A stretch of DNA of 64,000 nt, from contig CAWGSU010000003.1 in the NCBI GenBank assembly GCA_963825325.1, forward strand, positions 192,895-256,894, in the 5' to 3' direction. This DNA comes from an uncultured Actinomycetes bacterium (GTDB lineage: Bacteria; Actinomycetota; Thermoleophilia; Gaiellales; JAICJC01). Of the stretch, positions 7,017-31,699 are shown in pieces (the stretch's first letter is position 1; each line of letters starts with the position of its first letter). The notes beneath the pieces were generated by a model, which saw only the letters and a list, made by a program, of their open reading frames with translations, did not search any database and was not told the origin of the DNA. A program made the translations under genes and the position numbers.

Positions 7017-7038
7017 GACGTTCGACGATGTAGACCGA

Positions 7039-7120
7039 GTGTTACGCTTTGCGCCTCGCGGGGACTCCCCAAACAGCCTTCCCGGGAGCCATTTGACGGG
7101 AAGGTAGATACTGGAGTTCC
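7039..7120 (+). repeat. mosaic repeat copy 1: arm A - core - arm D
   Basis: Core CCCGGGAGCCATTTGACGGG at 7081-7100. The left arm GTGTTACGCTTTGCGCCTCGCGGGGACTCCCCAAACAGCCTT is homologous to the other A arms. The right arm AAGGTAGATACTGGAGTTCC is unique. Confidence 0.9.
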
Positions 7121-7286
7121 TCGTCGGACTAGCCGTGACGCAGATCGTCTCGGTGGGCTGTGCTGACCGTAGTTCGCATTCGACGGGCGGCGCGTGGAGT
7201 CGCTGAGGCGGGAGCGAACTGGCGTCGTGGGTGGATGGGTAACGGCCCAATCGGGGTGCCGCGGAGTGGTGTGTGAGAATGCGCCG

Positions 7287-8634
7287 ATGAAGCCTGAGAC
7301 TCGGTACGCGCTGAGCGGCGACGTCCACATCGCCTACCAGATTTCTGGTGACGGCCCGTTCGACCTCGTCTTCGTTCCCGGCTTTGTGACGCACATGGAG
7401 CTCCAGTGGAAGCTGCCGGGGTTTCGAGGAGTTTCTGGCCGACTTGGGCTCGTTCTCGCGCTTGATCCGGTTCGACAAGCGTGGAACGGGCATGTCCGAC
7501 CCGGTGGCCGGCGCGCCCAGTCTGGAGACGCGCATGGATGATGTCCGCGCGGTGATGGACACGGTGGGTTCGCGGCGCGCCGCCTTCTACGGCCTGTCGG
7601 AGGGTGCCGCGTTGAGCATCCTGTTCGCGGCGACCTACCCCGAGCGGACTGCGGCATTGGTCGTCCGCAGTTGCTCGCCCCGCACGATGTGGGCGCCGGA
7701 TTACCCATGGGGACGAAGCGAGGACGCATATCAGCGCGAGGTCGACCAGGGTCTCCAGGTCTACGGCTCAAGGTCGGAGGCTCGCGCCGCGATGCGCGAG
7801 CTTGGAATGCACGACGGGGACGAGATCGAGGCGTTCATCGACTATGTCCGCCTGGCGACAAGCCCGGGCATGCTGGAGGGTCTGTACCGCATGAACAAGG
7901 AGATCGATGTCCGCGATGTGCTTCCCGCCGTCCGCGTGCCGGCACTGGTCATGCACGGAAGCGAGGATGCCGTCGTCCCGGTCGGTGCGGGGGCATACAC
8001 CGCCCAGCGTCTCAGCTCTGCCCGGTTCGTGGAGATCGAGGGAATGGGGCACCTGGCGCTCCGGGCCGGGGGCGATCGCATCCAGCGCGAACTCGAGCAG
8101 TTCCTCACCGGCGTGTGGGAGACCGGCGGGTGGGAGGAGTCGGAATCTGACCGGATGCTCGCGACCGTCCTGTTCACCGACATCGTCGATGCCACATCGA
8201 AGGCGATCGAGCTCGGGGATCGGCGCTGGAGCGAGCTGCTCGAGCGCCATCACACCTTCATACGACGGGAACTGATTCGGTTTCGCGGGCGCGAGGTGGA
8301 CACCGCCGGAGACGGGTTCTTCGCCACCTTCGACGGTCCGGCGCGCGCAATTCGCTGCGCCCGCTCGATCGTCGACGGAATGCACCATCTCGGTCTCACC
8401 GTCCGCGCGGGCCTGCACACCGGAGAATGCGAAGTGGCAAACGGGAAGGTCTCGGGAATCGCCGTTCACACCGGCGCACGAGTGGCGGCGCAGGCACTCT
8501 CTGACGAGGTGCTCGTTTCGAGCACCGTCAAGGACCTCGTCGCCGGGTCAGGAATCACGTTCACCGAGCGGGGACTGCGTGAGCTCAAAGGCATCCCGGG
8601 CGAGTGGCGACTGTTCGCCGTCGACAACACCTGA
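7287..8634 (+). pseudogene. alpha/beta-hydrolase plus class III adenylate/guanylate cyclase fusion, interrupted by a 1-nt frameshift
   Basis: The N-terminus MKPETRYALSGDVHIAYQISGDGPFDLVFVPGFVTHMELQWKLPG is in frame 3. The continuation FEEFLADLGSFSRLIRFDKRGTGMSD is in frame 1. The switch is at CCGGGGTTT, about 7416-7424. Length 1348 = 3n+1. Cyclase motifs LFTDIVDAT and DTAGDGFFATF are present. Confidence 0.8.
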
Positions 8635-8761
8635 ATCTCTGTGTTGCAGCCTCCTTGATCGGTGGAAGCAGCCCGACCACTAGGCGAGTCCGGGCTCCGA
8701 GGTGTCGCCGCTGACGTGAACCACCGCCACGCCGGCGACTTGTTCCCAAAGGCGCCTGCGT

Positions 8762-8861
8762 CGCGGATGACGTGTCCGCGTTCCTGCAATCCCTATAACC
8801 TGGGAGCCATTTGACGGGAAGGCTGTTGGGGAGGCTCAGCGAGGTGCGAGCCGTAACGCGG
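8762..8861 (+). repeat. mosaic repeat copy 2: arm C(rc) - core - arm A(rc)
   Basis: Core variant CCTGGGAGCCATTTGACGGG at 8799-8818. The left arm ...TTCCTGCAATCCCTATAA is the reverse complement of the arm right of copy 4. The right arm AAGGCTGTTGGGG...CGTAACGCGG is the reverse complement of A. Confidence 0.9.
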
Positions 8862-9080
8862 TGGTCAGTCCGATCCCACGAGGCGTCCTTCGGGCCGGCT
8901 CGGAAGGCCGGTCCCGGCTGGAGTCACCGCCCGCGCGGCGGGTTGGCAAGCACATCGAGTCGGAGATTGCCCTGTGCGTCGCCATAGATCGCGCCCCGGA
9001 CACGTGCCTCGAAACGCCGTTAGAGTCGCGTGTTACGAGTGGGTGCCTTCGTGCCAAGCGGGCTCTCAAGGAGTGGGTGA

Positions 9081-10565
9081 ATGGCGCGGATTGTGGTGGT
9101 TGGAGGTGGAATCGGCGGCCTCAGCGTGGCGCTGCTGCTCGGTCGTGGGGGTCACCAGGTGACGGTGTGTGAGCGCGACCCGGCGCCTGCGCCGTTGAGC
9201 GCGGATGATGCGTGGACGGGGTGGCGGCGGCCGGGTACCCCGCAGGCACGGCTGGGGCATTCGTTCCTAGCGGGCTTTCGGCGGGCGTTGCGCCAGCGCC
9301 TGCCCGACGTGCTCGACGCGGTGCTGGCCGCCGGCGTGCCCGAGCTTGACATGACGATGTGGATGGCCGACGGCGTGGAGCGAGTGCCGCAGGACGCCGA
9401 GCTCTTCATCGTGCGAGCGCGGCGACCGGTTGTGGAGGCCGTGCTTCGACGGGCAGCGGAGGCGGAGCCGACCGTGCAGGTACGAGCTGGATGCCGTGTG
9501 CAAGGCCTGCTGGCCGATCCGCCACGGCCACGCGACGTTCCTCGGGTTACCGGCGTCGCCACCTCGCGTGGGGCGATCACCGCCGATGTCGTGGTTGTGT
9601 CCGGCGGCCGCTCGGTGCCGGTCGCGCGCTGGTTCCAAGCGATCGGAGCGACCACTCCAAACGAGCAGTCGGAAAGCTGTGGATCGGCGTGCTACACCCG
9701 CTACTTCCGGACGCTTGCCGCAGACGATGACGACGCGCGGATCGATACCGGTCCGACAATCCACCGCGACCCCGGCTACCTCCTCTACGAGGTATGGGGT
9801 GCCGACAATCACACCTTCGCATGCGAGATTGCAGTCCCCGTCTCCGACCAACCGCTGAAACAACTGCGCGACGAGGCAACCTGGATGGCGGCCGCAGCGG
9901 CGATGCCCGAGTGGCAGGAATGGATCGACCCGGAGCGTTCCCAGCCGATCACTCCCGGGGTGGACGTGATGGGCAACGAGCGCAACACCCTGCGACGATT
10001 CGTCGAGGACGATCGGCCATTGGCGCTGGGAGTGCACGTGATCGGCGATGCCCGCTGCCAGACCGACTCGCTGTACGCGTGGGGGTGCGGCAACGCGCTG
10101 ATGGCAGCGGCGGCAGTGTCCGACGCGATCACCGAGCACGCCACCGATGCCGAGGCTCAGGCGCTCTCCCTCGCCGCTGCCGTGGACGAGGAACTGGAAG
10201 GACGCTACGCGTACTCAGTCGCAAGGAATCGCGCCCGCGACCGTGTCCTTCGAGCCGAACCGCGCTGGGACACGATGAACACGGGCATCGGACTCATCGA
10301 CGGCGTGCTCCTCCCCGCCGCAGACCACGACGCGGAGGTCTACCGCGCCGTTTACCGGTGGGACTTACAGCTCGACCCAGCCGCCAACCTCGAACTGAAC
10401 GCGGCGGTGATCGAACGGGCACGAAAAACCGTTGGAGACCCCACCGAGCCCCCGCTCGACACCGAGGGCATACCCACCCGCGACCAATTACTGGAAGCGA
10501 TCGTCGGGAGCCCGGGATCCCGCCGGCGAACAGTGAGTCTGGGCCCTTTGTCGAGCGGCAACTGA
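9081..10565 (+). CDS. FAD-dependent oxidoreductase
   Basis: 494 aa with N-terminal dinucleotide-binding motif IVVVGGGIGGLSVALLLGRGGHQVTVCE. Confidence 0.85.
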   Translation: MARIVVVGGGIGGLSVALLLGRGGHQVTVCERDPAPAPLSADDAWTGWRRPGTPQARLGHSFLAGFRRALRQRLPDVLDAVLAAGVPELDMTMWMADGVERVPQDAELFIVRARRPVVEAVLRRAAEAEPTVQVRAGCRVQGLLADPPRPRDVPRVTGVATSRGAITADVVVVSGGRSVPVARWFQAIGATTPNEQSESCGSACYTRYFRTLAADDDDARIDTGPTIHRDPGYLLYEVWGADNHTFACEIAVPVSDQPLKQLRDEATWMAAAAAMPEWQEWIDPERSQPITPGVDVMGNERNTLRRFVEDDRPLALGVHVIGDARCQTDSLYAWGCGNALMAAAAVSDAITEHATDAEAQALSLAAAVDEELEGRYAYSVARNRARDRVLRAEPRWDTMNTGIGLIDGVLLPAADHDAEVYRAVYRWDLQLDPAANLELNAAVIERARKTVGDPTEPPLDTEGIPTRDQLLEAIVGSPGSRRRTVSLGPLSSGN

Positions 10566-10582
10566 CCGAGTCGCCGGTGGCG

Positions 10583-10630
10583 CCCGGGAAGGCTGTTGGG
10601 ACATCCCGCGAGGTGCGGGTCGTAACGCGG
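10583..10630 (+). repeat. mosaic repeat copy 3 (partial): CCCGGG + arm A(rc)
   Basis: CCCGGG is joined directly to AAGGCTGTTGGGACATCCCGCGAGGTGCGGGTCGTAACGCGG. The core segment AGCCATTTGACGGG is missing. Confidence 0.8.
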
Positions 10631-10744
10631 CCCTGCGGTAGCGAGATGTTGGGCACCTGAAACGTTCCGCGCCGCTGAAGCACCGTAGAGAGGGCGAACA
10701 CGAGGGCGGCGAGAGTGCGAGGACGCCGGCTATGTCCGCTCACA

Positions 10745-11031
10745 GCCGACGGCCCGCCGATGCCCTGCCGGTCGGCGGTGTCGGCGTGGTCGAGGTCCGG
10801 CGAGTCGCGGAAGATCTCGTCGACGGTCGCGTCTGGGCGGGCGAGTTCGTCGGCGACGGCGGCCTGGTGCTGCGGGAGCACCTCGTCGTTGAGCTCTTCG
10901 AGCATCGCGCGCAGTCGGCGGTTGACCTGGATGGCGGTCGCGCCGTACTCGCGGATCTTGGTTACGCCGAGTGCGAGGGAGTCGGCCCAGCGACGAGTGT
11001 GGATGACGACGTGTCCGGCCTGCGAGAGCCG
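10745..11031 (-). pseudogene. 3' remnant of a DUF2254-family gene
   Basis: Minus frame reads RLSQAGHVVIHTRRWADSLALGVTKIREYGATAIQVNRRLRAMLEELNDEV...ADRQGIGG, resembling a DUF2254 C-terminus. An in-frame TGA at 11032-11034 cuts off everything upstream, and there is no N-terminal part. Confidence 0.5.
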
Positions 11032-11036
11032 TCAGC

Positions 11037-11055
11037 CCTGGGAGCATCTCATAGG
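11037..11055 (+). repeat. possible degenerate core copy
   Basis: CCTGGGAGCATCTCATAGG against CCTGGGAGCCATTTGACGG: the first 9 nt are identical and about 15/19 match overall with one gap. It sits exactly at the truncation point of the DUF2254 remnant. Confidence 0.3.
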
Positions 11056-11115
11056 CGAGCCGCAGTCCGGTAGCTGGGTCAACTCCAGACTGTCGCCCAG
11101 GCGGGCGGTACCGGT

Positions 11116-11152
11116 GCGGGGCGCCACGGGTTGGGTACCGATGGCGCCCCGC
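11116..11152 (-). terminator. hairpin downstream of the alkaline-phosphatase-family gene
   Basis: 11-bp perfect stem GCGGGGCGCCA / TGGCGCCCCGC with a 15-nt loop, 15 nt beyond the stop at 11167. Confidence 0.45.
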
Positions 11153-11166
11153 GTTGGAGTGGGCCG

Positions 11167-13032
11167 TCAGCGCAGGCCTGGAAGGACTCGCGTTCCCTCC
11201 TGCTGGACGGCCTGTAGCGAGCCCGGATCGAGGCCGAGGAGCTGCAGGATTGTCGGCGCGACTTGGGTCGTAGTTACCCATTGGTCCGAGGCGCCACGGT
11301 GCACGGTCCCGGGCGCGTAGACGAGGATCGGCACGTCGCGGTCGCCTGGGTTGTCGCCGCCGTGCTCGGCGATCTTCGTGCCGGTGGTGTAGACGACGCC
11401 GACCTGGACACGGCCGAACACGTCCGGATGGCGCGGATCCGAGTACGGAACGCCGAAGAAGTGAGCGGCCTCCTCACCGGCGTAGATCCGCGCCAGGCCG
11501 GAGTGCGCGACCTGCTCGGTGCCGCGGTTCACGCCGTCGTTGTTGTAGAGCACCGCCGTCGCGCTGTGGTGCCACAGGTAGTGCTTGACGAAGTCGGCCG
11601 CGCGCTGCGTCTTGACGGACAGGTAGCTCTGCCACAGGTCGTCGTCGGTGCCGGCAACGATCAGCGGCGTGATCGTGCCTCCGCTCAGCCCGTTCGTGCA
11701 ATAGGTCGTCGGGTCGGGCATCGCTTTCGGGTTCTGCTGCTCGCACCAGGCCTCGTTGATCGCGCTGATGATCGGCCCGTCGTCGATCCGCTTCAGCAGC
11801 AACGGATTCTGCGGCGACTGACCATGCTTGGCCGTCACGATGATCGCCGTGGAGGACGCGAGGCCGTTTCGGCGGATCGTGTCGACCATCCGCCGAAGTT
11901 GCGCGTTGACGTAGTGCAGCGCGCCGGCCAGCAGCGGACGCGGGGTCGTCGTTCCGGGGTAGTAGCCGGCGAGCTCAGTCGGCCCCACCGTGTACGTGCC
12001 ATCCGCGTTCCTGGTGATGGTGCCAGGTGAGTCGACCTTCTCGGCGACCGACACGGCCTGGAAGTTCATCCCCAGGATCGCCGGCACACCAACCTTATGG
12101 CGGCCGCTGTGGTCGTAGCCGTCAATCTCGTTGATGACCGCCTGCACCTTGTAGCGGTCGTACTGCTTGGTAGCAGCGTCGATATGGGCCCAGTCGTCGT
12201 CCTGCGGATACGGAACGCCATTGGGCTCGACCGCCTGTGAGTCGATCTCCGGGGCGAACAGGTCGTCGATGCTGTAGCCACCCGACCCCGGACCGTTGAA
12301 CGACGAGTAGACCGCGTGCTTGTCAGACCAGGCCGTCCGCATGCCGGCGTGGTGGATGACCTGGAAGATCGTGTTCACCTTCAGGTAGTCCCACGGCATG
12401 ATCGGCTGACAGGTCGCCGGATCGACCGGGTAGGTCGCCGGGTTCAGGCCCGACTGCGGATGTGGGGTCAGGTTCATGATCGCGCCCGGGTTCGTGTCAA
12501 GGCCGTTCGGGTAGAGCGAGCCGCCCTCGTCGAAGGACGGGAACGTGTTGCCGCTACCGTTGTTGAGCAGGTCAGGTACGGCGTTGAGAATGTCGTCCGG
12601 CGAGTCGTAGATCACGTTGCCGCCCGGGACCGGACCCGAACAGCCGGTGGTGCCAGGCGGAAAGACTCTGTGGCTGTACTCCACGTCGTAGTAGACGCCG
12701 GTCGCGCGCGGATCACCGCCGGTCATCAACGCGGTGCCACCCGGGTCCGAGTCGGAGGGATCGGACGTGTGCGCGTTACTGAACTCCGTCCCACCGTGGA
12801 CCAGCTTGGCCAGTTCCGAGTTCGGGTGGTGTGCCACGTACCACTCGAGGTCGGACTGGTGCATCCCATCCACGGAGATCAACAGGACGTGCTTGACCCC
12901 ATGCTCGGCCCGCCCTTCGTGTTTTGCGGACGGCCGCACACCGGCGGAGGCCGATCCCGCCGCCAGAATCCCGAGCACGGCGACGCAGGCAACCGCGCCC
13001 GCACTACGACGCAACCTCAACATTTCGCGCAC
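11167..13032 (-). CDS. secreted alkaline phosphatase superfamily protein (nucleotide pyrophosphatase/phosphodiesterase-like)
   Basis: 621 aa. Signal peptide ...VAVLGILAAGSASA. Metal and nucleophile region HVLLISVDGMHQSD and SDPSDSDPGGTALMTGG. Confidence 0.88.
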   Translation of the reverse strand: MREMLRLRRSAGAVACVAVLGILAAGSASAGVRPSAKHEGRAEHGVKHVLLISVDGMHQSDLEWYVAHHPNSELAKLVHGGTEFSNAHTSDPSDSDPGGTALMTGGDPRATGVYYDVEYSHRVFPPGTTGCSGPVPGGNVIYDSPDDILNAVPDLLNNGSGNTFPSFDEGGSLYPNGLDTNPGAIMNLTPHPQSGLNPATYPVDPATCQPIMPWDYLKVNTIFQVIHHAGMRTAWSDKHAVYSSFNGPGSGGYSIDDLFAPEIDSQAVEPNGVPYPQDDDWAHIDAATKQYDRYKVQAVINEIDGYDHSGRHKVGVPAILGMNFQAVSVAEKVDSPGTITRNADGTYTVGPTELAGYYPGTTTPRPLLAGALHYVNAQLRRMVDTIRRNGLASSTAIIVTAKHGQSPQNPLLLKRIDDGPIISAINEAWCEQQNPKAMPDPTTYCTNGLSGGTITPLIVAGTDDDLWQSYLSVKTQRAADFVKHYLWHHSATAVLYNNDGVNRGTEQVAHSGLARIYAGEEAAHFFGVPYSDPRHPDVFGRVQVGVVYTTGTKIAEHGGDNPGDRDVPILVYAPGTVHRGASDQWVTTTQVAPTILQLLGLDPGSLQAVQQEGTRVLPGLR

Positions 13033-13583
13033 CCCTCCCGACGAAGACCCTGCCGCGCCGCATCCTCATTGCTCCACCGCGGCGCAGGGGTGAAAGAACG
13101 GTGAGCAGGCGGTGAGAATTCGGAAAAGCGGGGGCGGACCGCTGCCTGGGCGCCATGGCCGTCGTGTGCCGCTTGCTGGGCGGCGAGGAGGTGGCTGTCG
13201 GCGGCGAGCGGTTGGCTGCCGATGTCCTCGTAGACTCGCGCGGCGTCCGGGTAGTTCGCCTCGGCGGTGAGGAGTAGCGCGTCGCGCCAGCGGCACGCCG
13301 GAGGCAGGAGCAGCGCCGCCTGGCGGATGTCGTCGTGTCGGTCTGTCTGGGCGAGGATGAGGCTGAGCTCACAGAGTTCGGGAGCGTTGCTCGTTTGGCC
13401 ACCAGTCTGGCGCCGACGGGTGAGAAAGCGCGTGTCTTACTCGGCGCTCAGCCGAGCGTCGGGACTCAGTCGGCGGTACTGCAAGCTGAATCGCGACCGA
13501 GTGCGTGCCGCATCCGGTCCACGGGCCCAGGTTCACGTAGTCAGGGCACTCTATTGGTAATGCAGTGGCACGTCGCCGCGCCT

Positions 13584-14666
13584 TCATCGAACGTCGACGT
13601 AGATGACCTCGATGGCGTTATTCCCGTAGCCCAGCCTGTTCCAGATCGGGACTTCGGGTTGGACATTCCCGGCGGCATCGGTGGCGCGGGCGCGGAGGCT
13701 CTTTCGCCCGGGCTCCGTGGGTTCCCATTCGAACGACCAGTTCTGCCACTGGTACGGGCCTTTCGGTGTCTCCACGTGTGCCGGCAGCCATTCTGACTCG
13801 CCGGTGAGGCTGATGTCCACGTTCGTGACCGGACCGGTGCCCGACCATGCCTTGCCGCGAACCACGTATTTCCCCCCGCCGCCGATCACGGCGCCTTCGC
13901 GGGGGTCGGTAATGCGCGCGCGGGGCCGCATCACTGTCACGCGCTCGGCTGGGCGGTCTGCCCACTGGTACATGTAGTGCCCGGTTTCGAACTCGCCGAT
14001 GAACGGTTTGGTGACCACCTCGATGTGCTTGAGCCACTTGACGGAGGCGACGCCGTACCAGTGCGGCACGACCAGCCGAAACGGAGCTCCGTGGTCGGGG
14101 TTGAGCGGTTCGCCGTTCATCTCGTAGGCGATCATGATCTCGGCCGAAGGGTCGGCTGCGTGCACGAGGGTCAATGACCGCTCGAACGAGAGGTCTGAGG
14201 CATCGATGTCTTTGAGCACGGGGTTCAGGATGTATGACCCGTGGTCGACGCCGGCGAAAAGCACTTCGACGCCGGTGTCGAGCGGCGCCGCCCGTTCGAG
14301 CACCTCGTGGAGCAGCGCTCCCTTCCAACGTGCGGTGGAGACGGCGTAGTCGCCCCACGGCTCGCCGGCGGGGAGTGGGCGCATCGCGAGTCGTCCGTTA
14401 CCCGCGCATTCGAGGGTGACGACCCGCTCGATCGAGCGAATCGCTTTTAACTCGTCGAGACTGAGTGCGTAGGGATGGCCGACCGCTCCGCCGATCTCGA
14501 GCAGGCCGTCGTGGTCGGGGACTGGGAAGTTGCTGCGAACGTAGTGCAGCTCAGTCGGGGTGATGTCGGTCTCGAGCGCCTCGGGCGGCGCCTCGGCGTT
14601 GAACGGCTGGCCGTGGATCATCGTCAGTGCCGCGCGTTCGCGTTCCAGATCGTCTGCTAGAGCCAC
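13584..14666 (-). CDS. molybdopterin-dependent oxidoreductase, sulfite-oxidase family
   Basis: 360 aa with HYVRSNFPVP, TLECAGNGR and APFRLVVPHWYGVASVKWL, typical of the sulfite oxidase Moco and dimerisation domains. Confidence 0.9.
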   Translation of the reverse strand: MALADDLERERAALTMIHGQPFNAEAPPEALETDITPTELHYVRSNFPVPDHDGLLEIGGAVGHPYALSLDELKAIRSIERVVTLECAGNGRLAMRPLPAGEPWGDYAVSTARWKGALLHEVLERAAPLDTGVEVLFAGVDHGSYILNPVLKDIDASDLSFERSLTLVHAADPSAEIMIAYEMNGEPLNPDHGAPFRLVVPHWYGVASVKWLKHIEVVTKPFIGEFETGHYMYQWADRPAERVTVMRPRARITDPREGAVIGGGGKYVVRGKAWSGTGPVTNVDISLTGESEWLPAHVETPKGPYQWQNWSFEWEPTEPGRKSLRARATDAAGNVQPEVPIWNRLGYGNNAIEVIYVDVR

Positions 14667-14698
14667 AATAGGTCTCCTCGGTTCAAGCGGTGTGCGGG

Positions 14699-15562: not shown

Positions 15563-15570
15563 GCGGTCTC

Positions 15571-16911: not shown

Positions 16912-16926
16912 CCTCGCAGGCCCACG

Positions 16927-18051: not shown

Positions 18052-18071
18052 ATGCCTTTTCCCTCTGCCGG

Positions 18072-20400: not shown

Positions 20401-20426
20401 GGAGAGAAGGAATTAGACCGGCCGTC

Positions 20427-21347: not shown

Positions 21348-21508
21348 CAGACTTTCCCTCTCATCTTTCTTGGGCCTGGCCCGCACAGCGGCCTTTTGCT
21401 TTCCCGGCCGTTGCAGCCACAAGGCTGTTCTTGACTGGAATGATTGATCCACTATGCCAAATATCATATGGTATGTCAAAGCCATTTTCAGCGGTATACT
21501 TTCCGCGG
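21348..21508. promoter_or_regulatory. divergent SDR/TetR intergenic region with an AT-rich imperfect palindrome
   Basis: Local AT-rich patch CCAAATATCATATGGTATGTCAAAGCCATTTTCAGCGGTATACT, including TATCATATGGTA (10/12 palindromic), between divergent starts at 21347 and 21509. Confidence 0.4.
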
Positions 21509-22147
21509 ATGTCCTCAAGCAGCTCTGGTCGGCCGCGGTTGACGCGCAAGGGCGCCGCCACGCGCGCGCGGATCGTCGACGCCGCGGCAGAGCTGATCTT
21601 TCAGCAGGGCGTTGCCCACACGACGATCGAGGAAGTGCGCGACGGCGCACACGTGAGCAGCTCGCAGCTCTACCACTACTTCGAGGACAAGCCGGCGCTC
21701 GTCCGGGCAGTCATCGAGCGCCAGGCCGACACGATGATCGCCACGCAGGAGCGGTTTGACCTCAGCAGCCTCGACGGCCTGCGGGAGTGGCGCGATTTCG
21801 TTGTCGATCACGCCCGCACCATGGGCGGCCGCTTCGGTTGCCCGATCGGCTCTCTCGGTGCCGCGCTGGCCGAGACGGAGCCCGAAGGTAGGGCAGTGGT
21901 TGCGGCGTCCTTCAAACGCTGGGAGGCCAGCATCATGGCTGGTTTTCTGCGGATGCACGCGCTTGGCCGACTCGAGCCGGAGGCCGACCCGCGCCAGCTC
22001 GCGCTGGCCACGCTTGCCGCACTTGAGGGCGGCCTCTTGCTCGCTCAGATCCAGCGCGACTCCGAACCGCTCGCGGCCGCGCTCGACGCGATGCTCACGC
22101 TCATCGCCACCCTCAGGAGCACCACGAGCACGTCGCTCAACCGCTGA
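21509..22147 (+). CDS. TetR-family transcriptional regulator
   Basis: ATG at 21509. Product MSSSSSGRPRLTRKGAATRARIVDAAAELIFQQGVAHTTIEEVRDGAHVSSSQLYHYF, a TetR HTH. Confidence 0.9.
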   Translation: MSSSSSGRPRLTRKGAATRARIVDAAAELIFQQGVAHTTIEEVRDGAHVSSSQLYHYFEDKPALVRAVIERQADTMIATQERFDLSSLDGLREWRDFVVDHARTMGGRFGCPIGSLGAALAETEPEGRAVVAASFKRWEASIMAGFLRMHALGRLEPEADPRQLALATLAALEGGLLLAQIQRDSEPLAAALDAMLTLIATLRSTTSTSLNR

Positions 22148-22279
22148 GCGGCACCGATGCCCTAGGGGAAGCCGTCGCTGAGCGCGTGGTGCGAGATCCT
22201 CTGTGTAATGGATTACTTACGCCATTTCTGTTACAGTCTGCCCTGGAATAATGGATTGTGTTTTCCAACTGTGAAGGGG

Positions 22280-22920
22280 ATGTCGACAATGGATCTGCAG
22301 GACAAACGGGTTTGATCACCGGTGGCACGTCCGGGATGGGGATTGCCACCGCGCAGGCGCAGTTCATCGCCGCGGATTTCTCGGAGTTCTCCGAGGTGGG
22401 GCGTGTCGCCGAGGCGGCAGGCGAAATCGATGTCCTTCTCAACCTTGCCGGCGTTGCCGTCATGGGAGCGACGACTGACACCGACGAGACGGCGTTCGAC
22501 GGTCTGTTCCAGATCAACGTCAAGGCGCCGTTCTTCCTCGTTGCCGCGCTCGCCCCGAAGATCGCTGCCCGCGGTGGCGGGTCGATCATCAACGTCTCAA
22601 CGATGGTCGCGAGCTACGGCCAGCCAGGCTTGGCTGCCTACGGAGCCTCGCGCGTGGCGATCGAGCTGCTGACAAAGGCGTGGGCCGCCGAATACGGGCC
22701 GCAGAACGTCCGGGTTAACGCGGTCGCTCCCGGTCCGACGTTGACCCCGACACTGGAGCCGCGGTTGGCGATGGCCCAGGAGTTTGCCAAGCAGATTCCA
22801 CTCGGCCGGGTCGCTGACGTGCGCGAGCTGTCTGACGTCATCACGTTCCTCGCGACCCCGGCGGCCGGCGACATCACCGGCGCGATCATCCACGTCGACG
22901 GCGGCCGCACCGCGGTCTGA
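22280..22920 (+). pseudogene. SDR-family gene with a 5' frameshift and an internal deletion of the cofactor-binding region
   Basis: RBS AAGGGGA plus ATG 22280/22289 encodes (MST)MDLQDKRV then a stop. The SDR body TGLITGGTSGMG... continues in the +1 frame from about 22306 (GACAAACGG). GIATAQAQFIAADFSE lacks the roughly 35 aa normally between the glycine motif and the D-x-S/T strand. Length 632 = 3n-1. Confidence 0.6.
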
Positions 22921-22976
22921 GAGAGACGCGATGGTCCTGGTCACCACTCCCCGCGAGCGGACTTCCCAGGGGCGGA

Positions 22977-23174
22977 TTAGAGGATCTTGAAGAGCATCTT
23001 GACGCCCGTGCGGAGGTTCCGTTGGCGAGCCAGAACCGCGACCGTGATTAGCCCTCCCAAGACGATGGGCACGAAAGAGCGTGCTTCGTCTTTGAGCGCA
23101 TCGAGGTCTGTCGCCAGCGCTTGCCGCTCAGCCGCGATCTCCAACCGGATCTCCTCGACCGGGCGCTCAGGCAT
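22977..23174 (-). CDS. small membrane-anchored protein (DUF3618-like)
   Basis: 65 aa with helical N-terminus EEIRLEIAAERQALATDLDALKDEA and a C-terminal TM segment. It overlaps the upstream gene stop by 8 nt. Confidence 0.6.
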   Translation of the reverse strand: MPERPVEEIRLEIAAERQALATDLDALKDEARSFVPIVLGGLITVAVLARQRNLRTGVKMLFKIL

Positions 23175-23535
23175 GGTCCTGAAGCGTCTTCACGGTTCGC
23201 TGCGCCTCGTCGGCGACGGCCCACGGCACCGTGGCCTTCTTCGCGAAACGCTTCGCCAGTAGTCCTGCGATCGCAGCCACCAAGAGCACTCCGCCCGCAA
23301 CGATCAGCAACGAGAGCCACACCGAGAAGGTGGTGCTCAGCGCCGCTGCCGCGGCGCCGAGGGCGAACAGCACCGCGTAGGCGATGAGCACGACCGCCGC
23401 CAGTCCGAGCGCGCCGGCGACTCCGACCGCGCCGGCTTTCCGCTTCGCCTCGAGCTGAGCAAGCTCGACGTTGAGTTGGGCTAACGACCTCAGCCGAGTC
23501 TGCACCCGCCTCGCTTGGGAGACGATCCCGAACAT
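23167..23535 (-). CDS. phage-holin-family / Holin-X-like membrane protein
   Basis: ATG at 23535. Product MFGIVSQARRVQTRLRSLAQLNVELAQLEAKRK followed by two TM segments. An earlier GTG is possible. Confidence 0.65.
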   Translation of the reverse strand: MFGIVSQARRVQTRLRSLAQLNVELAQLEAKRKAGAVGVAGALGLAAVVLIAYAVLFALGAAAAALSTTFSVWLSLLIVAGGVLLVAAIAGLLAKRFAKKATVPWAVADEAQRTVKTLQDHA

Positions 23536-23653
23536 CTCGGCAGCGAGCGTAGCAGGCTGGCCGACGCTCAGCCGTTTCGGGCAGCGCCCGTCCCGAACCT
23601 GACGTTCGGTACCATTGACGGCTCTGCGGTTGACGAGAACTGAGGAGGCAGTC

Positions 23654-23971
23654 ATGAAGACGTTGCTCGCTGTGCTTGTCGGGGTGCTTGCGGCGATCGG
23701 TGCCGCCGTCGTCGCTCTCGTGTTCTTGCGGAAGAAGCCGGACTCGTGGGGCCCGGCGGTGAGTTCCGCTCGAGACACGGCCACCTCGTGGGGGAAGTCC
23801 GCGGCCGACGGGGCGAGCCAGGCCGCCGACAAGGTTGCGGCCACCGCTGCTGATGCCACCGATGCGGCGAGCAAAGCCGCCGACAAGGTTGCGGCCACCG
23901 CCGAGGGTGCGACCGATGCGGCATCCACAGTCGCCGATCAGGCGAAGAGCATGGTGCGCAAGGGCACCTGA
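23654..23971 (+). CDS. membrane-anchored alanine-rich repeat protein (YtxH-like)
   Basis: RBS GAGGAGG plus ATG 23654. Product has an MKTLLAVLVGVLAAIGAAVVALVFL anchor, then two 18-aa repeats AADKVAATA(A/E)(D/G)ATDAAS. Confidence 0.7.
   Translation: MKTLLAVLVGVLAAIGAAVVALVFLRKKPDSWGPAVSSARDTATSWGKSAADGASQAADKVAATAADATDAASKAADKVAATAEGATDAASTVADQAKSMVRKGT
23822..23901 (+). repeat. in-frame 54-bp tandem duplication inside the YtxH-like gene
   Basis: GCCGCCGACAAGGTTGCGGCCACCGC occurs at 23822-23847 and again at 23876-23901. Confidence 0.7.
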
Positions 23972-24070
23972 CCGAGTCGGTCTGCACGGGCGCCGTGGCG
24001 GCCTGCGTGGAAAACGATAGGGACCTGCTGCCGTTACCCTCAGCCTGCTCGACAGCCAGACAATCCGGTC

Positions 24071-24162
24071 GTGCGGCGTTTCGCCCTCTCTATCTACTCT
24101 CCCGGGAGCCATTTGACGGGTTATAGGGATTGCAGGAAGTCGGACACGGGGGGCATCCCGAC
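24071..24162 (+). repeat. mosaic repeat copy 4: arm B(rc) - core - arm C
   Basis: Core at 24101-24120. The left arm GTGCGGCGTTTCGCCCTCTCTATCTACTCT is a 30/30 reverse complement of 27676-27705. The right arm is TTATAGGGATTGCAGGAA plus hairpin GTCGG..CCGAC. Confidence 0.9.
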
Positions 24163-24314
24163 GTGGCGACGCGGCTAGGGTACGCCTCCGGTTCCACGCC
24201 GTCGAGGGCGGCGGCGACGACGATGGCGTCGCCCGCTTCCACCCGATCGGCAGCCCGCCACGTTCCGAGCAGCCGCTCGGGATCCCCGCCCGCAGGGCCA
24301 GCGGGTTAGCGACC

Positions 24315-25520
24315 TCAGTCGTGCGGCGGCGATTGTTCGACGGCGTCCTCGCGTCGGGGGAGGCGGACGCTGATATCGAGGCCACCCGTGGGCATGGCGG
24401 TTGCTTCTACCGTGCCGCCGTGTACCGCGGCGATTGATGAGACGAGGGTGAGACCGAGTCCGAAGCCGTCGTGGCGAGTGCGGTCATCGAGGCGGGTGAA
24501 CGGCAGGAACAGCCGGTCGACTTGATCGGGTGGTACGAGCGGGCCGGTGTTGGCGACTCGCACCACGGACGCGCCGTTGTCGGTTCCGGTCGAAATCGTG
24601 ACAGTGCCGCCCGCGATGTTGTAGCGCTCGGCGTTCGAGAGGAGGTTGGCGACGAGCCGTTCGAGCAGGACTCCGTCGCCGGTCACGGGAGCTTCATGGA
24701 GTGCAGTGGTCGTCGTGATCCCGTTTGCGGTACGTCCCTCGAGTGCGTCTTCGGAAACCGCGGCGAGATCCAGCGGTTCGGTGAGGGTACGCGCCTGGTC
24801 GTTGCGTGCGAGTACCAGCAGTGCCTCGATGAGCCGCTCGGAGTGACCGACCGCCTGGCGGACCTCGGCGGCCATCGACACCAGTTCGTCGCGCGCTGGC
24901 TCGGGCTTGGCGAGGACGACGTCGATGGCCGTGCGCATCACGGTCAGTGGCGTTCGGAGCTCGTGGCTCGCGTTGGCGATGAACTGCCGCTGGCTGGTGA
25001 AGGCGCGGTCGAGGCGTTCGAGCATCGTGTCGAAGGTGTCGGCGAGCTCACGCAGCTCGTCGCGCGGTCCCTCGAGAGCGATGCGCTGGGACAGATCTTG
25101 CTCGCTTGCCGCGCGAGCAGCTGCTGTCAGCTGGTGGACCGGGCGAAGGATGCGTCCGGCCACGATCCAGCCCACAACCACGGCGAGCGCGATGACTCCG
25201 GTCAGGGTGAGGAGCGAGTACGTCAGGAGGTGGGTGAGCGTCGTGCTGCGCTGAGCGGCGGCGCCGGCCCGGACACCGTTCGCGTACACGTCGCCGCACT
25301 TCTGCAGAACGCTGGAGCTGACACCACCACGGTGCGACGCGGCTTGCAGGCACCTCTCAAGCGCTGGTCGGATCGCGGTCGGGATCGTCGTCGGAGTCGC
25401 CCGGTTCAAAGTGTGCGCGACCAGCAGGTAGGTGATCAGTACCAGCGCGGCGCCGCCCACCGCGAACAGCGACGTATAGACCAGCGTCAGTCGCGACCGG
25501 GCGCTGAGCGGGCGACTCAC
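24315..25520 (-). CDS. sensor histidine kinase
   Basis: 401 aa with two N-terminal TM segments, H-box FIANASHELRTPLTV, and ATPase boxes NLLSNAERYN and GFGLGLTLV. Confidence 0.9.
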   Translation of the reverse strand: MSRPLSARSRLTLVYTSLFAVGGAALVLITYLLVAHTLNRATPTTIPTAIRPALERCLQAASHRGGVSSSVLQKCGDVYANGVRAGAAAQRSTTLTHLLTYSLLTLTGVIALAVVVGWIVAGRILRPVHQLTAAARAASEQDLSQRIALEGPRDELRELADTFDTMLERLDRAFTSQRQFIANASHELRTPLTVMRTAIDVVLAKPEPARDELVSMAAEVRQAVGHSERLIEALLVLARNDQARTLTEPLDLAAVSEDALEGRTANGITTTTALHEAPVTGDGVLLERLVANLLSNAERYNIAGGTVTISTGTDNGASVVRVANTGPLVPPDQVDRLFLPFTRLDDRTRHDGFGLGLTLVSSIAAVHGGTVEATAMPTGGLDISVRLPRREDAVEQSPPHD

Positions 25521-26182
25521 AGCCGGTAGCCGACACCGACGACGGTCTCGATCAGCGGCGGCTCCCCGAGCTTCCGCCGCAAACGTGCAATCGTGACGGC
25601 GACCGTATTGCTAAATGGATCGGCGTTCTCGTCCCACACGTGTTCCAGTAGATGCTCGGCGCTGACCGGTGCGCCGTCCGCGTCGGCCAGACACTCCAGC
25701 ACGCCGAACTCCTTGCGGGTCAGGGTCAGCGGGATGCCGGCGCGGCTGGCACGGTGCCGCGCACGATCGACCACCAAGTCGCCTCTGTGCACGACCGCGG
25801 GTGAGCCGGGCCCGCGGCGCCCAAGCGCGCGGATCCGCGCGATCAACTCGTGGAAGGCGAATGGCTTGCCGAGGTAGTCGTCTGCGCCCAACTCCAATCC
25901 GTCGACCCGATCCTCGACGTCTGCGGCAGCAGTCAGCATCAGGATGCGGCTCGACAAGCCGTCGCGCACTAGACGCCGGCAGACCTGGTCGCCGTGGACG
26001 GACGGCAGGTCGCGGTCGAGCACAACCACGTCGTATTCCGTAGCCGTGGTTCTCTGCAGCGCTGCCGAGCCGTCGTAGACCACATCGACGGCGAATCCGG
26101 CGTCGCGCAGACCCTCGCCGATTCGGTTGGCCAGCGCGACGTGATCCTCCACAACGAGCACGCGCACATCCACATTCTGCAC
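25517..26182 (-). CDS. OmpR-family response regulator
   Basis: 221 aa with receiver motifs VLVVEDH and VVVLDRDLP and a winged-helix C-terminus LTRKEFGVLECLA...VGVGYRL. There is a 4-nt overlap with the kinase gene. Confidence 0.9.
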   Translation of the reverse strand: MQNVDVRVLVVEDHVALANRIGEGLRDAGFAVDVVYDGSAALQRTTATEYDVVVLDRDLPSVHGDQVCRRLVRDGLSSRILMLTAAADVEDRVDGLELGADDYLGKPFAFHELIARIRALGRRGPGSPAVVHRGDLVVDRARHRASRAGIPLTLTRKEFGVLECLADADGAPVSAEHLLEHVWDENADPFSNTVAVTIARLRRKLGEPPLIETVVGVGYRL

Positions 26183-26287
26183 TGACCCAGGTGACAGCCG
26201 CCTAACAATCGCTGTTCGGCTCCTGTCATCGTCTGGGTGCTAAACCGGACAGGCAACGCCCCGCGATGTCCATGAACGGAGCAGCCG

Positions 26288-27601
26288 ATGAATGTCAGAG
26301 CAGCGAGTTGCAACGCACGCCGATCACAGGGCGCGGAACGCGACATCCGCTTAGTGTGGGTGGAAGCGGCGCTCGCCATTGCCGCGTTGGCTGCGCTGTG
26401 CGCCGCGGTCCTGTCGGTGCCGCCTCAGGCCGCAGAGCCCGATGACGGCGCCTATCACGCATCGATCGTGGCCACAACCGAAGGGCACTTCCTGACCTTG
26501 TCGACCGCTCAGGCGGAAACCCTGGCGGGGAAGCTACGAGACAACCCGGCCGCGCCCCCGAACCAGTGGGTTGAGGTGACCAGTGGGCGGTGGATCAGCG
26601 AGAAAGACCCCGGTTACCCGTTTGTTGCGGCGCCGTTCCAGAAGTTGGGCCTTGTTCGGTTGGCGCCGCTGTTCTATGGGGCGCTGGCGTGCCTCGGGTT
26701 GTTCTTCGGCGCCCGGCGCTGGCTAGGGCGCTTCGGCGGGCCTGCAGCCGTAGGCCTGTACTGCTCCTCCGGAGCGGCGCTCGCGTTCGCCTGGCGCGAC
26801 TACATGCCGACCTTCACCGATGCATCGCTAATCGCGGCGGGTTCGGGCGCCCTGCTGTGGGCGGTGCTGGCGACCGAGGCCAGCTCTCGGCGGCGCACCT
26901 GGGTCGGCCTCGCCGGATTCCTGGCGATCGAGATCGCAACATTCGTCCGCTACACCAACATCGTGATCCTCGGCTGCGCAGTCGTGGCCGTCATCGTGGC
27001 GTGGCGGCTGCAGTCCACGAGACTGCCCCTCCGCGCGCTGTGCTGGTGGCTTGCCTCGGTGGCCGCCTTCGGCGCCGGCGTGGCCATCTTCAACGACCAG
27101 GTCTACGGCGGCCCGCTGACAAGCGGGTACCCGCCCGGAGAGGTCACGTTCAGCGCCAGCGCGATCGTGCCGAATCTGCGGATCATGCCCGCGCATCTCA
27201 TGCAGGCCATGCCGATGCTGGTGTTGGGACTGATCTCACTGGCCTGGATCATCGTGCGGTGGCTAGTGCTGCGCCGCGTCGGCGGAGAAGTCGGCGCCAC
27301 GGCTCGTCGCGATCTCTGCGTCGCCCTCCCCCTCGCAGCGTCATGGTTCGCGATCTGGGGTCTGTACTCGGCGTACACCTGGACAACCGATCCGACCAGC
27401 GTCACAGTGCAGGTCGTCAGGTTCTACCTCCCGGCGATCGGTGCGATCGCGCTGCTCGGTGCCTGGCTCGTGACCAGGATTCCCGGCCGCCCACGGCGCG
27501 TCGGCCTAACCTCAACCGCCGTCATCGCTGTGCTGTTCGGCCTCGGCGTCTGGGCGTTTCACGCCATGTACGCAGCGTTTGGCGTCCCACTGGGCGGCTA
27601 G
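26288..27601 (+). CDS. polytopic membrane protein, GT-C / family-39-like glycosyltransferase
   Basis: 437 aa with about 10 TM segments. The N-terminal loop SEKDPGYPFVAAPFQKLG resembles ArnT/PMT-type enzymes. The start is uncertain. Confidence 0.6.
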   Translation: MNVRAASCNARRSQGAERDIRLVWVEAALAIAALAALCAAVLSVPPQAAEPDDGAYHASIVATTEGHFLTLSTAQAETLAGKLRDNPAAPPNQWVEVTSGRWISEKDPGYPFVAAPFQKLGLVRLAPLFYGALACLGLFFGARRWLGRFGGPAAVGLYCSSGAALAFAWRDYMPTFTDASLIAAGSGALLWAVLATEASSRRRTWVGLAGFLAIEIATFVRYTNIVILGCAVVAVIVAWRLQSTRLPLRALCWWLASVAAFGAGVAIFNDQVYGGPLTSGYPPGEVTFSASAIVPNLRIMPAHLMQAMPMLVLGLISLAWIIVRWLVLRRVGGEVGATARRDLCVALPLAASWFAIWGLYSAYTWTTDPTSVTVQVVRFYLPAIGAIALLGAWLVTRIPGRPRRVGLTSTAVIAVLFGLGVWAFHAMYAAFGVPLGG

Positions 27602-27614
27602 GCAAGCCGGAGCT

Positions 27615-27705
27615 GCGTTACGGTCCACACCTCTTCCAAGCCTCCCAACAGCCTTCCCGGGAGCCATTTGACGGGAGAGTAGATAGAGAGGGCGAAACGC
27701 CGCAC
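27615..27705 (+). repeat. mosaic repeat copy 5: arm A - core - arm B
   Basis: Core at 27656-27675. The left arm is GCGTTACGG...CCTCCCAACAGCCTT. The right arm is AGAGTAGATAGAGAGGGCGAAACGCCGCAC. Confidence 0.9.
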
Positions 27706-27766
27706 GTCTCGCGGGGCGCGGGTTACACGTACGGCGAGTGATCGACGAGGCCGAGCCCGTCGGGCA

Positions 27767-28873
27767 CTAGCCGCAGAAGTCGGCGATGACGCATTCGAGG
27801 GCGCCCACGCAGCGGTCGAGCTGATCGAGGTCGACCCACTCCACCGCTGCGTGGGCGCCCTCGCCGCCGGGCCCGAAGATGACGGTGGGAATGCCGGCAG
27901 CGGAGAAGATGGCGCTGTCGGCCCAGCCGATACCGCCGGTCACGGGCGCCTCCTGGCCGAGCGCTCGGCGAGCAGCCGCCACGATCGGAGCGTCCGCGGC
28001 AACCTCGAACGGCTCGCGCACGAGCGTGGTGTGCAGCGTGGCGTCGGCGTCGCCAAGCAGGGCGGTCAGCTCCGCTTCGACGATCTCGATCGTCTCGCCG
28101 GGGAGAGTGCGCCGCTCGAGTTGGAGGCGGCACGACTCGGGATAGGTCGAGAGCTCGCGGCCGCCGTCGATGATGGACGCGTGGATCGAGCCCGGGCCGA
28201 GCAGCGGATGGCCCGAGCGCCCGATCAGCTCGGCCGCGAAGCGGTCGAGCTCGACCAGGACCGGGCCCATGCGAGCAATGGCATCGACGCCGTCCTCGGG
28301 CCGCGACCCGTGCGCGGCTCGGCCGCGGACGACGATCTCGTGCCAGGTGAAGCCCTTGTGCGCGATCGCGACGGTTATCTCGGCGCCGGTGGGCTCGGTG
28401 ACGATCGCGGCGTCGGCCCGCACCGACTCGGCGACGGCCTGGGCGCCGACCGAGGCGAACTCCTCGTCGCAGACGGCGGCAACGATGACGTCGCCCGCAA
28501 CGCCCCGCTCGGCGGCGTTGGCGGCAGCCACCATGATGGCGGCCAGGCCGGCCTTCATGTCGTACGCGCCGCGGCCGTAGAGGCGGTTTCCCTTGACCCG
28601 CGGCGAGAAGGGGTCGGCCATTCCGTCGACGCCAACGACATCCATGTGAGCGTACAGGAGCAGCGGGCGGCCGCCGCCCTTCCCCCGCGTCCGGGCGACG
28701 ACGTTGGGCCGGCCAGGCTCGACGTCGGCAATGTCGACATCGAGGCCGCGCTCGGACAGCCAGCCGCCGACGAACCGGGCGATCTCGCCTTCCCCCGCGC
28801 CGCCCGGGACGAGGCTGGGGTTGATCGAGTCGATGGCGACGAGGTCGGCCAGTAGCGCCCGGGCATCCTCCAC
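27767..28873 (-). CDS. M20-family metallopeptidase (ArgE/DapE/acetylornithine deacetylase-like)
   Basis: 368 aa with LLLYAHMDVVGV, CDEEFASVG, and a dimerisation-domain insertion. Confidence 0.9.
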   Translation of the reverse strand: MEDARALLADLVAIDSINPSLVPGGAGEGEIARFVGGWLSERGLDVDIADVEPGRPNVVARTRGKGGGRPLLLYAHMDVVGVDGMADPFSPRVKGNRLYGRGAYDMKAGLAAIMVAAANAAERGVAGDVIVAAVCDEEFASVGAQAVAESVRADAAIVTEPTGAEITVAIAHKGFTWHEIVVRGRAAHGSRPEDGVDAIARMGPVLVELDRFAAELIGRSGHPLLGPGSIHASIIDGGRELSTYPESCRLQLERRTLPGETIEIVEAELTALLGDADATLHTTLVREPFEVAADAPIVAAARRALGQEAPVTGGIGWADSAIFSAAGIPTVIFGPGGEGAHAAVEWVDLDQLDRCVGALECVIADFCG

Positions 28874-29206
28874 GCGGTCACCCTACCAACTGGGCTTCGG
28901 CCGCGGAATGAGCGAAACGCACACAACCGAGGCGAGGATTGGAGTCAAACACCATCCGGTCCACCGTGCGACAGGCGTGACGGGGGTGTGACGTCTAGCC
29001 CGCGTTCGCGGCGGCGAGACACCATACGGGGGCAGACTGACGCCGCACCCCGCACGGATGGGATATCCACCCCGCGCCGCCCGCTCTGCAGGCAGGCCGA
29101 AACCGCCGGTAGGCGGCTTCCGCTTGCCGCTCGGTCAGTGAGGCGACGTGATCGGCACAAGCTCTCAGAATGATGGGCGGGGTGCCCGAGGGTTCGTGCG
29201 TGGCGC

Positions 29207-29253
29207 AGTGCGGCGTTTCGCCCTCTCTATCTACTCTCCCGGGAGCCATTTGA
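29207..29253 (+). repeat. mosaic repeat copy 6: arm B(rc) - core (first 17 nt only)
   Basis: GTGCGGCGTTTCGCCCTCTCTATCTACTCT plus CCCGGGAGCCATTTGAC, then unique sequence TCCGTCCGACCC leading into the lexA promoter. Confidence 0.9.
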
Positions 29254-29284
29254 CTCCGTCCGACCCACCTGGCACACTGTGACC

Positions 29285-29298: not shown

Positions 29299-29315
29299 AC
29301 CCCAGGAGGGTGGCG

Positions 29316-31342: not shown

Positions 31343-31349
31343 ACTCATA

Positions 31350-31698: not shown

Positions 31699-31699
31699 G

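Follow-up and report, generated by a model that had tools for sequence, protein, structure and literature searches.

Rows of cassettes between genome-specific 14-nucleotide repeats upstream of lexA in Gaiellales

Results

Genes and repeats at the locus

A stretch of 64,000 nucleotides (nt) of a Gaiellales contig, called the window in the following, was analysed for a repeat that a preliminary description had interpreted as a dispersed family with an invariant core and exchangeable arms. Positions are counted from the first letter of the window. The copies of this repeat form an array next to lexA and a zinc-ribbon gene, and the open reading frames (ORFs) of the array encode ordinary metabolic and regulatory proteins. 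The G+C content is 65-68% in the array left of lexA versus 70-76% right of lexA. RNase P RNA is located at 31349-31701, and the window is bacterial chromosome. Its closest protein homologues come from named Gaiellales.

When the window was scanned, the 20-mer CCCGGGAGCCATTTGACGGG was detected without mismatch at three sites, 7081-7100, 24101-24120, and 27656-27675. A fourth copy at 8799-8818 has a C>T exchange at position 3, and the last one consists of the first 17 nt only and occupies 29238-29254, one position to the right of where it had been placed before. That there are five copies, all on the + strand, was correctly described; 0.01 matches are expected from shuffled sequences. The inner 14-mer GGGAGCCATTTGAC is exact in 5 of 5 copies, for which 0.30 would be expected even with up to two mismatches allowed. 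The core can be written as CCC, the 14-mer, and GGG, and shows a short inverted symmetry, CCCG...CGGG. All core and arm copies are located between ORFs with coding-type G+C at the third codon position, in agreement with their earlier description as intergenic. In the remaining 35 kb (30-64 kb), neither core copies nor the cassette ends introduced below were detected by 20-mer and profile searches.

Ahead of lexA, TTGACT (29250-29255) is separated by a spacer of 17 nt from the -10-like hexamer CACACT (29273-29278). A Gram-positive-type SOS box, CGAACACATGTTCG, lies 6 nt past CACACT at 29285-29298, with the last core copy 38 nt upstream, and AGGAGG is present at 29304-29309. The start of lexA is probably ATG 29316 and not 29292. 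TTGAC at the right end of the core is therefore a putative -35 element of lexA, and the 14-mer consists of this motif and the 9 nt upstream of it.

With TTGAC in the core, placed like a -35 element at lexA, the repeat could be a structured RNA or a regulatory element, such as a small RNA, a terminator, or a promoter module, that is repeated between genes. This explanation is most improbable. The idea that each copy of the core acts as a sigma-70 promoter was rejected, since a -10-like hexamer at a suitable distance is present at the lexA copy alone and the other four copies lack a -10 element. The comparison with Rfam that had been proposed was run and gave no match at the joints, neither at the gathering level nor at E <=1. 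The four complete joints of the window fold no better than shuffles (z -1.15 to +1.15), and arms of type A, described below, have no conserved structure and no covariation. With a terminator scan negative at the arms as well, terminators or conserved hairpins were also dismissed, and the earlier suggestion of a structured RNA or single-stranded DNA element was not upheld.

A dif/Xer site was rejected as well, because the cumulative GC skew climbs steadily to ~50 kb, levels off from there, and does not reverse at the array, and because XerC/XerD-like arms are absent beside the core. Outside the window, the 20-mer was searched in 185,579 species genomes and in JGI metagenomes, which yielded only chance-level matches, namely one Parasphingorhabdus coding sequence that turned up in both collections and an Acidimicrobiales site lacking arms. 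By our own arithmetic, about 2 matches per 596 Gb are expected by chance in such scans. No match was found among the PLSDB plasmids, and viral contigs contained no A or B ends.

Arms of the repeat

Four types of arms, A to D, flank the core. According to a repeat finder, the three window copies of arm B are 100% identical over 30-35 nt, as had been claimed, and the two copies of arm C are 93% identical. Arm A is indeed present in four copies; their pairwise identity is 67-81% rather than roughly 80% throughout. Arm D, previously considered unique, is a distant A-like end, 57-62% identical to the A arms (70% over 61 nt if the core is included), and has GTAGATA in common with B. The stripped copy described at 10583, which consists of CCCGGG and one arm (A3 in Table 1), was confirmed. 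Every complete copy in the window carries two different arms, as reported, which is in line with the window joints folding like shuffles.

All arm types turn the same C-poor end, 5'-GGG..., to the 14-mer. Read inward from the 14-mer, type A starts with GGGAAGGCTGTTGGG..., type B with GGGAGAGTAGATAGAG..., type C with GGGTTATAGGGATTGC..., and type D with GGGAAGGTAGATAC.... In the first 20 nt, only 16 of 140 positions are C (P = 2e-9). A ends keep the sequence boxes GGGAAGGCTGTTGGG, GAGGTG, and CCGTAACGC. Patterns that describe cassette ends include AAGGCTGTTGGG-N18-24-CCGTAACGC, GAGTAGATAGAGAGGGCGAAACGCC, and TTATAGGGATTGC. Profile searches detected A, B, and C ends only beside 14-mers, except for two solo ends and one weak A-like match in the related contig L008, and no cassette ends in the loci L009, L010, and L012-L016. 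Further end types are present in L007 and L008. One of these, at 16245-16282 of L007, reads AAAGGAGGTAGGTGGGTGAGGGTGAAGGGGTGTGAGGG inward, has no C in 38 nt and at least four G-runs, and could form a G-quadruplex.

The arms are the ends of cassettes and are part of the DNA segments between the joints. Since the arms of each joint belong to two neighbouring cassettes, mismatched arm pairs are the expected state. The earlier view of the arms as interchangeable modules, with recombination or mobility as the field in which to search, was right in this respect. At least four cassettes are stacked in 7084-29254, and each of these four lies between two identical 14-mers, which the following comparisons identify as direct duplicates of the host's target.

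Comparison with related loci

Related contigs were fetched via close homologues of three window proteins. All comparisons are with metagenome contigs, and four loci include lexA, the window, L007, L008, and L018. The lexA promoter flank with its SOS box is kept in the latter three. In the four genomes, a 14-mer specific for the genome comes next to the conserved flank, ...TCGGACGG(A/C), namely GTCAAATGGCTCCC in the window, GTCAAGGATGGCCG in L007, GTCAAACCGCGGAT in L008, and GTCAAGGAGCCCGC in L018, and the conserved sequence CCGTCCGA is found beside the position of the 14-mer in L007, L008, and L018. The 14-mer of each genome recurs in the same orientation at all other joints of that genome (5 copies in the window, 6 in L008, 2 in L007, and 2 in L018), and in all four genomes the copies form one array starting at the lexA promoter. 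The same arms, 92-100% identical, surround these different 14-mers. In L005 and L004, B and C ends are located beside two more 14-mers, GTCAAACCGGCCCG and GTCAAAACGGGCGC.

On its lexA side, the 14-mer is joined to GGA or GGC, not CCC, in the window, L007, L008, and L018. This assigns CCC and GGG to the cassette ends and leaves 14 nt as the repeated unit. If all joints are aligned in one orientation, they read cassette end-CCC, GTCAA+N9, GGG-cassette end. The 9 nt beside TTGAC are unconstrained and vary between species like any intergenic DNA. The notion of a dispersed family with an invariant core is not supported: the 14-mer is genome-specific, the arms are the ends of neighbouring cassettes, and the copies in the loci available, none of them a whole genome, are clustered. 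Concerted evolution of the core by gene conversion or by repeated integration and excision was considered and dropped, since the comparison of the lexA sites offers a simpler explanation, the 14-mer being host sequence.

A nickase of the rolling-circle or HUH type, cutting one strand in the core and mobilising the DNA between co-oriented cores, would agree with the restriction of the cores to one strand in each genome (5/5, 6/6, 2/2, and 2/2). It is nevertheless very unlikely: it would explain neither why an imported cassette has the host's 14-mer on either side nor the inversions described below, an HUH gene was not found, and most joints are without a hairpin.

In L007, the window segments 6281-7086 (95.4% identical) and 29245-31731 (81%) are contiguous. 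The joint consists of the lexA flank, GTCAAGGATGGCCG, and the GGG-A1 end, a single 14-mer linking the metallophosphoesterase block to the lexA flank. The 22 kb between the first and the last core are thus missing, and the one core left differs in sequence. L007 thus shows an unoccupied state without the 22 kb, which may be ancestral rather than produced by deletion.

Six joints are present in L008, at 7070, 9573, 13085, 17339, 19420, and 19543, all on one strand and all of the GTCAAACCGCGGAT type. Four of the 14-mers are exact, while those at 17339 and 19543 contain one and two mismatches, respectively. The mismatched copies lie towards the lexA-distal end of the array, with the exact copy at 19420 between them, a placement that fits older copies being farther from lexA. 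A, B, and C ends adjoin these joints and share 92-100% identity with their counterparts in the window. Between the last two joints, at 19434-19542, a unit of 109 bp is found that consists of two ends only, without cargo, and is MITE-like. Two joints of L008 are repeated at 99.2% identity in L017, which comes from an independent metagenome and argues against an assembly artefact. The cassette adjoining lexA in L008 contains a gene of the virginiamycin B lyase family.

Two same-type joints of L008, composed of A, core, and reverse-complemented A, fold strongly (13041-13142, z = -7.8; 17295-17396, z = -5.7). Together with the recurrence of arm types in both orientations, this could point to a dispersed palindromic family of the REP, REPIN, or MITE kind with an arm-loop-arm structure, whose copies recombine at the loop and thereby generate chimeric arms and chromosome rearrangements. 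Such a family is improbable. In the loci examined, copies were detected in arrays alone, mostly anchored at lexA, and the loop consists of host promoter sequence, which is genome-specific at the same site. The arms of same-type joints were, by eye, no more alike than arms across joints, and their differences showed no bias towards G-T pairs. The junctions of the window do not fold, and recombination between co-oriented loops cannot invert cassettes, yet inversions are seen.

Inversions became apparent when cassettes were followed from genome to genome. L018 is organised as lexA flank, GTCAAGGAGCCCGC, GGG-B...M20 peptidase...B-CCC, GTCAAGGAGCCCGC, GGG-A.... Positions 3932-5197 of L018 are 99.45% identical to 27672-28937 of the window, the similarity starting exactly at the B end, whereas lexA is only 76% identical, and the cassette is inverted relative to lexA between the two genomes. 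The kinase cassette (cassette 2 in Table 1) is 98.2% identical in L008 and 97.6% in L017 over window positions 24290-27659, and 94.5% in L011 over 24335-27659; the homology blocks in the three contigs end inside the core, at 27659. The backbones of the window and L008 are 76% identical in lexA and 87% in the RNase P region. Relative to the 14-mer, the kinase cassette has the opposite orientation in L008, L011, and L017. Contig L011 starts with ...CGGATGGG followed by a C end and finishes with an A4 end followed by CCCG; the contig represents a single cassette, which the assembler severed at both joints. In summary, cassettes are 94-99.5% identical between genomes whose lexA genes are about 76% identical, and homology between genomes breaks at the boundary of end and 14-mer (window 27672, 27659, 7086, and 29245).

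Conservative site-specific recombination, as in integrons or in the accretion of tandem islands, would also produce direct repeats at every joint. Each cassette would be excised as a circle with one copy of the core, and a tyrosine or serine recombinase encoded elsewhere would integrate this circle at a matching core beside lexA. The precise absence of 22 kb in L007, the location of all insertions at one chromosomal site, and the short inverted symmetry of the core are in favour of it. The cassettes shared at 98-99.5% identity argue against it, since the 14-mers differ by host and both flanking copies are of the host type; donor-type or hybrid cores, as predicted by this mechanism, were seen in none of the 15 joints carrying a 14-mer. 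Moreover, the core is asymmetric, yet one and the same cassette is found either way round relative to it, and no recombinase gene is located near any array. Overall, this mechanism is unlikely. It would survive only with a recombinase that tolerates heterology in the overlap and converts it, comparable to the transfer of coupling sequences by Tn916.

Cassettes in the window

The features of the window are listed in Table 1. Perfect terminal inverted repeats are found only in cassette 1, which is bounded by inverted B ends of 33 nt (27673-27705 and 29208-29240), while the other cassettes mix A, B, C, and D ends. Cassette 1 carries truncated 3' ends of both genes neighbouring the M20 peptidase gene, which are intact in L006, and cassettes are therefore carved out of ordinary chromosomal DNA. 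Cassette 3 probably consists of two or more fused cassettes; its pieces are dispersed and reoriented in L007, L008, and L018. The homology between the window and L008 stops at 10584, at the solo A3 end. The 437-aa protein of cassette 2 is a polytopic membrane protein, and no match in Pfam, NCBIfam, or PDB was obtained for cassette proteins of unknown function (437, 425, 232, 380 aa, and others).

Table 1 Features of the window
Feature	Position	Strand	Remarks
14-mer T1	7084-7097	+	copy farthest from lexA in the window
14-mer T2	8802-8815	+	
14-mer T3	24104-24117	+	
14-mer T4	27659-27672	+	
14-mer T5, GGGAGCCATTTGAC	29241-29254	+	adjoins lexA; TTGAC at 29250-29254; followed by TCC, not GGG
lexA promoter flank	29255-29315	+	read from sequence
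lexA	29292-29951	+	Pfam LexA_DNA_bind and Peptidase_S24
Cassette 1	27673-29240	-	1568 bp; M20 peptidase gene 27767-28873 and leader
Cassette 2	24118-27658	+	3541 bp; ends C 24118-24148 and A4 27615-27658
Histidine kinase (cassette 2)	24315-25520	-	
Response regulator (cassette 2)	25517-26182	-	
437-aa membrane protein (cassette 2)	26288-27601	+	
Cassette 3	8816-24103	.	15,288 bp; ends A2 8816-8859 and B 24071-24103; FAD oxidoreductase, sulfatase-like, molybdopterin oxidoreductase, enoyl-CoA hydratase, DyP-like, DUF4331, short-chain dehydrogenases, TetR, holin-X-like protein
Cassette 4	7098-8801	+	1704 bp; ends D 7098-7141 and C 8771-8801 (terminating CCT); alpha/beta-hydrolase plus nucleotide-cyclase protein 7444-8634
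A1 end	7039-7083	+	ends CCC; attached to metallophosphoesterase block 6281-7083
Solo A3 end	10583-10628	+	CCCGGG + AAGGCTGTTGGG...CGTAACGC, without 14-mer; at 3' end of FAD-oxidoreductase gene
B-end fragment TAGAGAGGGCGAA	10686-10698	+	13 nt

No outer end and no further 14-mer were found left of the metallophosphoesterase block (6281-7083) with its A1 end. Positions 1-7038 of the window have a low, cassette-like G+C content of 66-67% and, except for the metallophosphoesterase block, have no nucleotide match in L007, L008, or L018. The flexible region probably extends beyond the left end of the window.

Several further observations were made in the cassettes and related contigs. The leader of the M20 gene, ~140 nt at 28874-29016 (- strand), shows high conservation in L004, L005, and L006, and partial conservation in L018. 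A regulatory leader or a candidate riboswitch is conceivable; Rfam contained no match, and the structure predicted by RNAalifold has almost no covariation. Within the 3' end of the M20 coding sequence, a 33-nt inverted repeat (27796-27863, 88% complementary, 2-nt spacer) is kept in relatives and yields a weak, spurious miRNA match in Rfam. Just downstream of the M20 gene, a segment of ~60 nt is inverted between L005 (3350-3420) and L006 (4750-4815); in L006 it constitutes the 3' end of a convergent gene for 128 aa. L005 also encodes, at 682-1794 and ~200 nt from a cassette joint, a protein of 370 aa with an HNH_4 domain. In cassette 3, a tandem duplication of 54 nt (23805-23912, 83% identical) is located inside the holin-X-like gene, and ~1.8 kb at 18650-20430 lack convincing coding potential, with flat G+C across codon positions and no family matches; this part may represent decayed genes or an eroded joint. 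A cassette in L018 (7835-9840) harbours a restriction-modification pair, an EcoO109I-like endonuclease and an N6/N4 methyltransferase. L004 contains four intergenic copies of another palindromic repeat, GGTGAATAACGGTGCCAGGCACCGTTATTCACC (3137-3170, 6289-6322, 6588-6621, and 9631-9664), which is unrelated to the cassette ends.

Discussion

From these comparisons it appears probable that the arrays consist of non-autonomous cassettes, inserted in trans in a transposon-like manner at a target upstream of lexA, of which 14 nt are duplicated upon each insertion. A cassette would be a segment with two ends reading 5'-GGG followed by about 15-20 C-poor nucleotides. An enzyme encoded elsewhere would cut the 14-nt host target with a stagger of 14 nt and join the cassette in either orientation, and fill-in would leave one 14-mer on each side. 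Successive insertions could then produce a row of identical, co-oriented 14-mers with cassettes between them. We infer that insertion prefers the lexA-proximal 14-mer, so that the array would grow at its lexA end, and recombination between direct 14-mers may delete cassettes.

As the simplest account of the data, this would explain why the core is constant inside each genome but changes from one genome to another, and why its copies are co-oriented and clustered at lexA. It also explains that the arms, unlike the core, are conserved across species, and that cassettes occur in either orientation. Chimeric arm pairs are then the ends of neighbouring cassettes, with the hairpins of matched arms as a by-product.

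Several points weigh against this interpretation. Neither the 64 kb of the window nor ~150 kb of related loci encode a transposase, integrase, or Cas1, and the acting enzyme is hypothetical. In detail, no window ORF contains a recombinase, transposase, Cas1, or HUH domain, neither Phage_integrase nor another recombinase domain was detected among the called genes of L007, L008, and L018, and none of the loci fetched contains an autonomous partner that has the same ends and encodes a transposase. The two ends of one cassette are often of different types, sharing little beyond GGG and C-poverty, which is unusual for recognition by a transposase. Target duplications of 14 nt are rare among bacterial transposons. 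The far end of an array, where the last cassette end, a 14-mer, and the native flank should meet, was not seen in the loci examined; in L008, unrelated sequence comes after the last C end (20138-20166). At 10586 of the window, a solo A end lacks a 14-mer, and positions 1-7038 may be older cassette DNA in which joints are no longer recognisable. Finally, only four lexA loci could be compared, all of them from metagenome assemblies.

The arrangement works like an integron or a landing pad for transposons and resembles a CRISPR array in form. As in integron arrays, cassettes with single to multiple genes are lined up at a promoter-adjacent chromosomal site, are horizontally shared, and lack their own mobility genes. 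Integron integrases are regulated by LexA, and a link to the SOS response is a further similarity, the array described here adjoining lexA itself. In contrast to integrons, no intI gene is located next to the array or among the called genes of L007, L008, and L018, the joints are not attC hairpins, and breakpoints are in the middle of the joint, not at an R' site. In addition, the repeat is host-specific and not borne by the cassettes, both orientations occur, and the cassettes are larger (0.1-15 kb). Tandem islands at tRNA genes and tycheposon-like islands share short direct core repeats between units at one locus and units composed of cargo only. There, the core travels with the element and, belonging to a conserved gene, is the same in all hosts; the orientation is fixed, and an integrase is encoded at the island end, none of which applies here.

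Mobile insertion cassettes (MICs) are mentioned in PMC4337579. These and other non-autonomous transposons likewise have transposon-type ends, no internal transposase, and a target duplication, and the 109-bp unit of L008 would correspond to a version without cargo. The Gaiellales cassettes differ by several unrelated end types per element, one promoter-proximal target, a duplication of 14 nt, and tandem stacking. For BIME, REP, and REPIN elements, the likeness consists in short intergenic modules of varied order and orientation, of which pairs of the same type can form long hairpins. REP elements and BIMEs are dispersed in hundreds of copies and composed of conserved palindromic units with variable linkers, whereas here the conserved linker is host promoter sequence, the copies detected in the loci examined are confined to arrays, mostly anchored at lexA, and the modules form the termini of mobile segments of kb size. 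A RAYT (Y1 transposase) gene is not present in the window. The earlier statement that the repeat is none of the described REP, BIME, MITE, or attC families was right.

Casposons and CRISPR adaptation have in common with the arrays a site-specific insertion by which host or array sequence of fixed length is reiterated, and the identical, co-oriented repeats separated by foreign DNA correspond to CRISPR in form. In casposons, the median length of the target duplications is 15 nt and the inverted terminal repeats are highly variable; one member of this group has been reported in Streptomyces (PMC4046053). A duplication of 14 nt is compatible with casposons and not specific for them; it provides a lead, not a test. 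Unlike casposons, the cassettes are non-autonomous with ordinary metabolic and regulatory cargo, and neither Cas1 nor PolB is encoded in any cassette or locus.

The cassette-capture arrangement could be matched to none of the described systems, and literature searches did not turn up any account of arrays like these. The way in which they combine features of integrons, site-specific transposons, and CRISPR or casposon integration is found in no described family, which leads to the hypothesis of an integrase with strong specificity for its target and loose specificity for its donor. As a tentative proposal, Gaiellales may possess an undescribed system for cassette capture, comparable to an integron that lacks both an integrase gene and attC, in which a trans-acting integrase recognising the target, Cas1/casposase-like or of a new family, would use the lexA promoter as a leader-like anchor and reiterate 14 nt as in CRISPR adaptation, resulting in a chronological array of horizontally shared genes next to the SOS regulator. 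The chance that the machinery behind the arrays is of a new type is considerable, though less than even. Since the target lies against the -35 element of lexA, the traffic of cassettes may be connected with the SOS response. An integrase of this kind would be of interest to evolutionary biology and genome engineering. The locus also holds a more general lesson, since what looks like a mosaic repeat with an invariant core in a single genome can prove to be a row of insertion joints, which is revealed only by comparison between genomes.

If this interpretation is true, soil Actinomycetota of the Gaiellales, a poorly studied order, would swap accessory genes across species by means of a dedicated chromosomal landing site instead of plasmids or integrase-bearing islands. 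The cargo found here and in the relatives would be part of this exchange, two-component systems, oxidoreductases, a peptidase, a restriction-modification system, and a streptogramin lyase.

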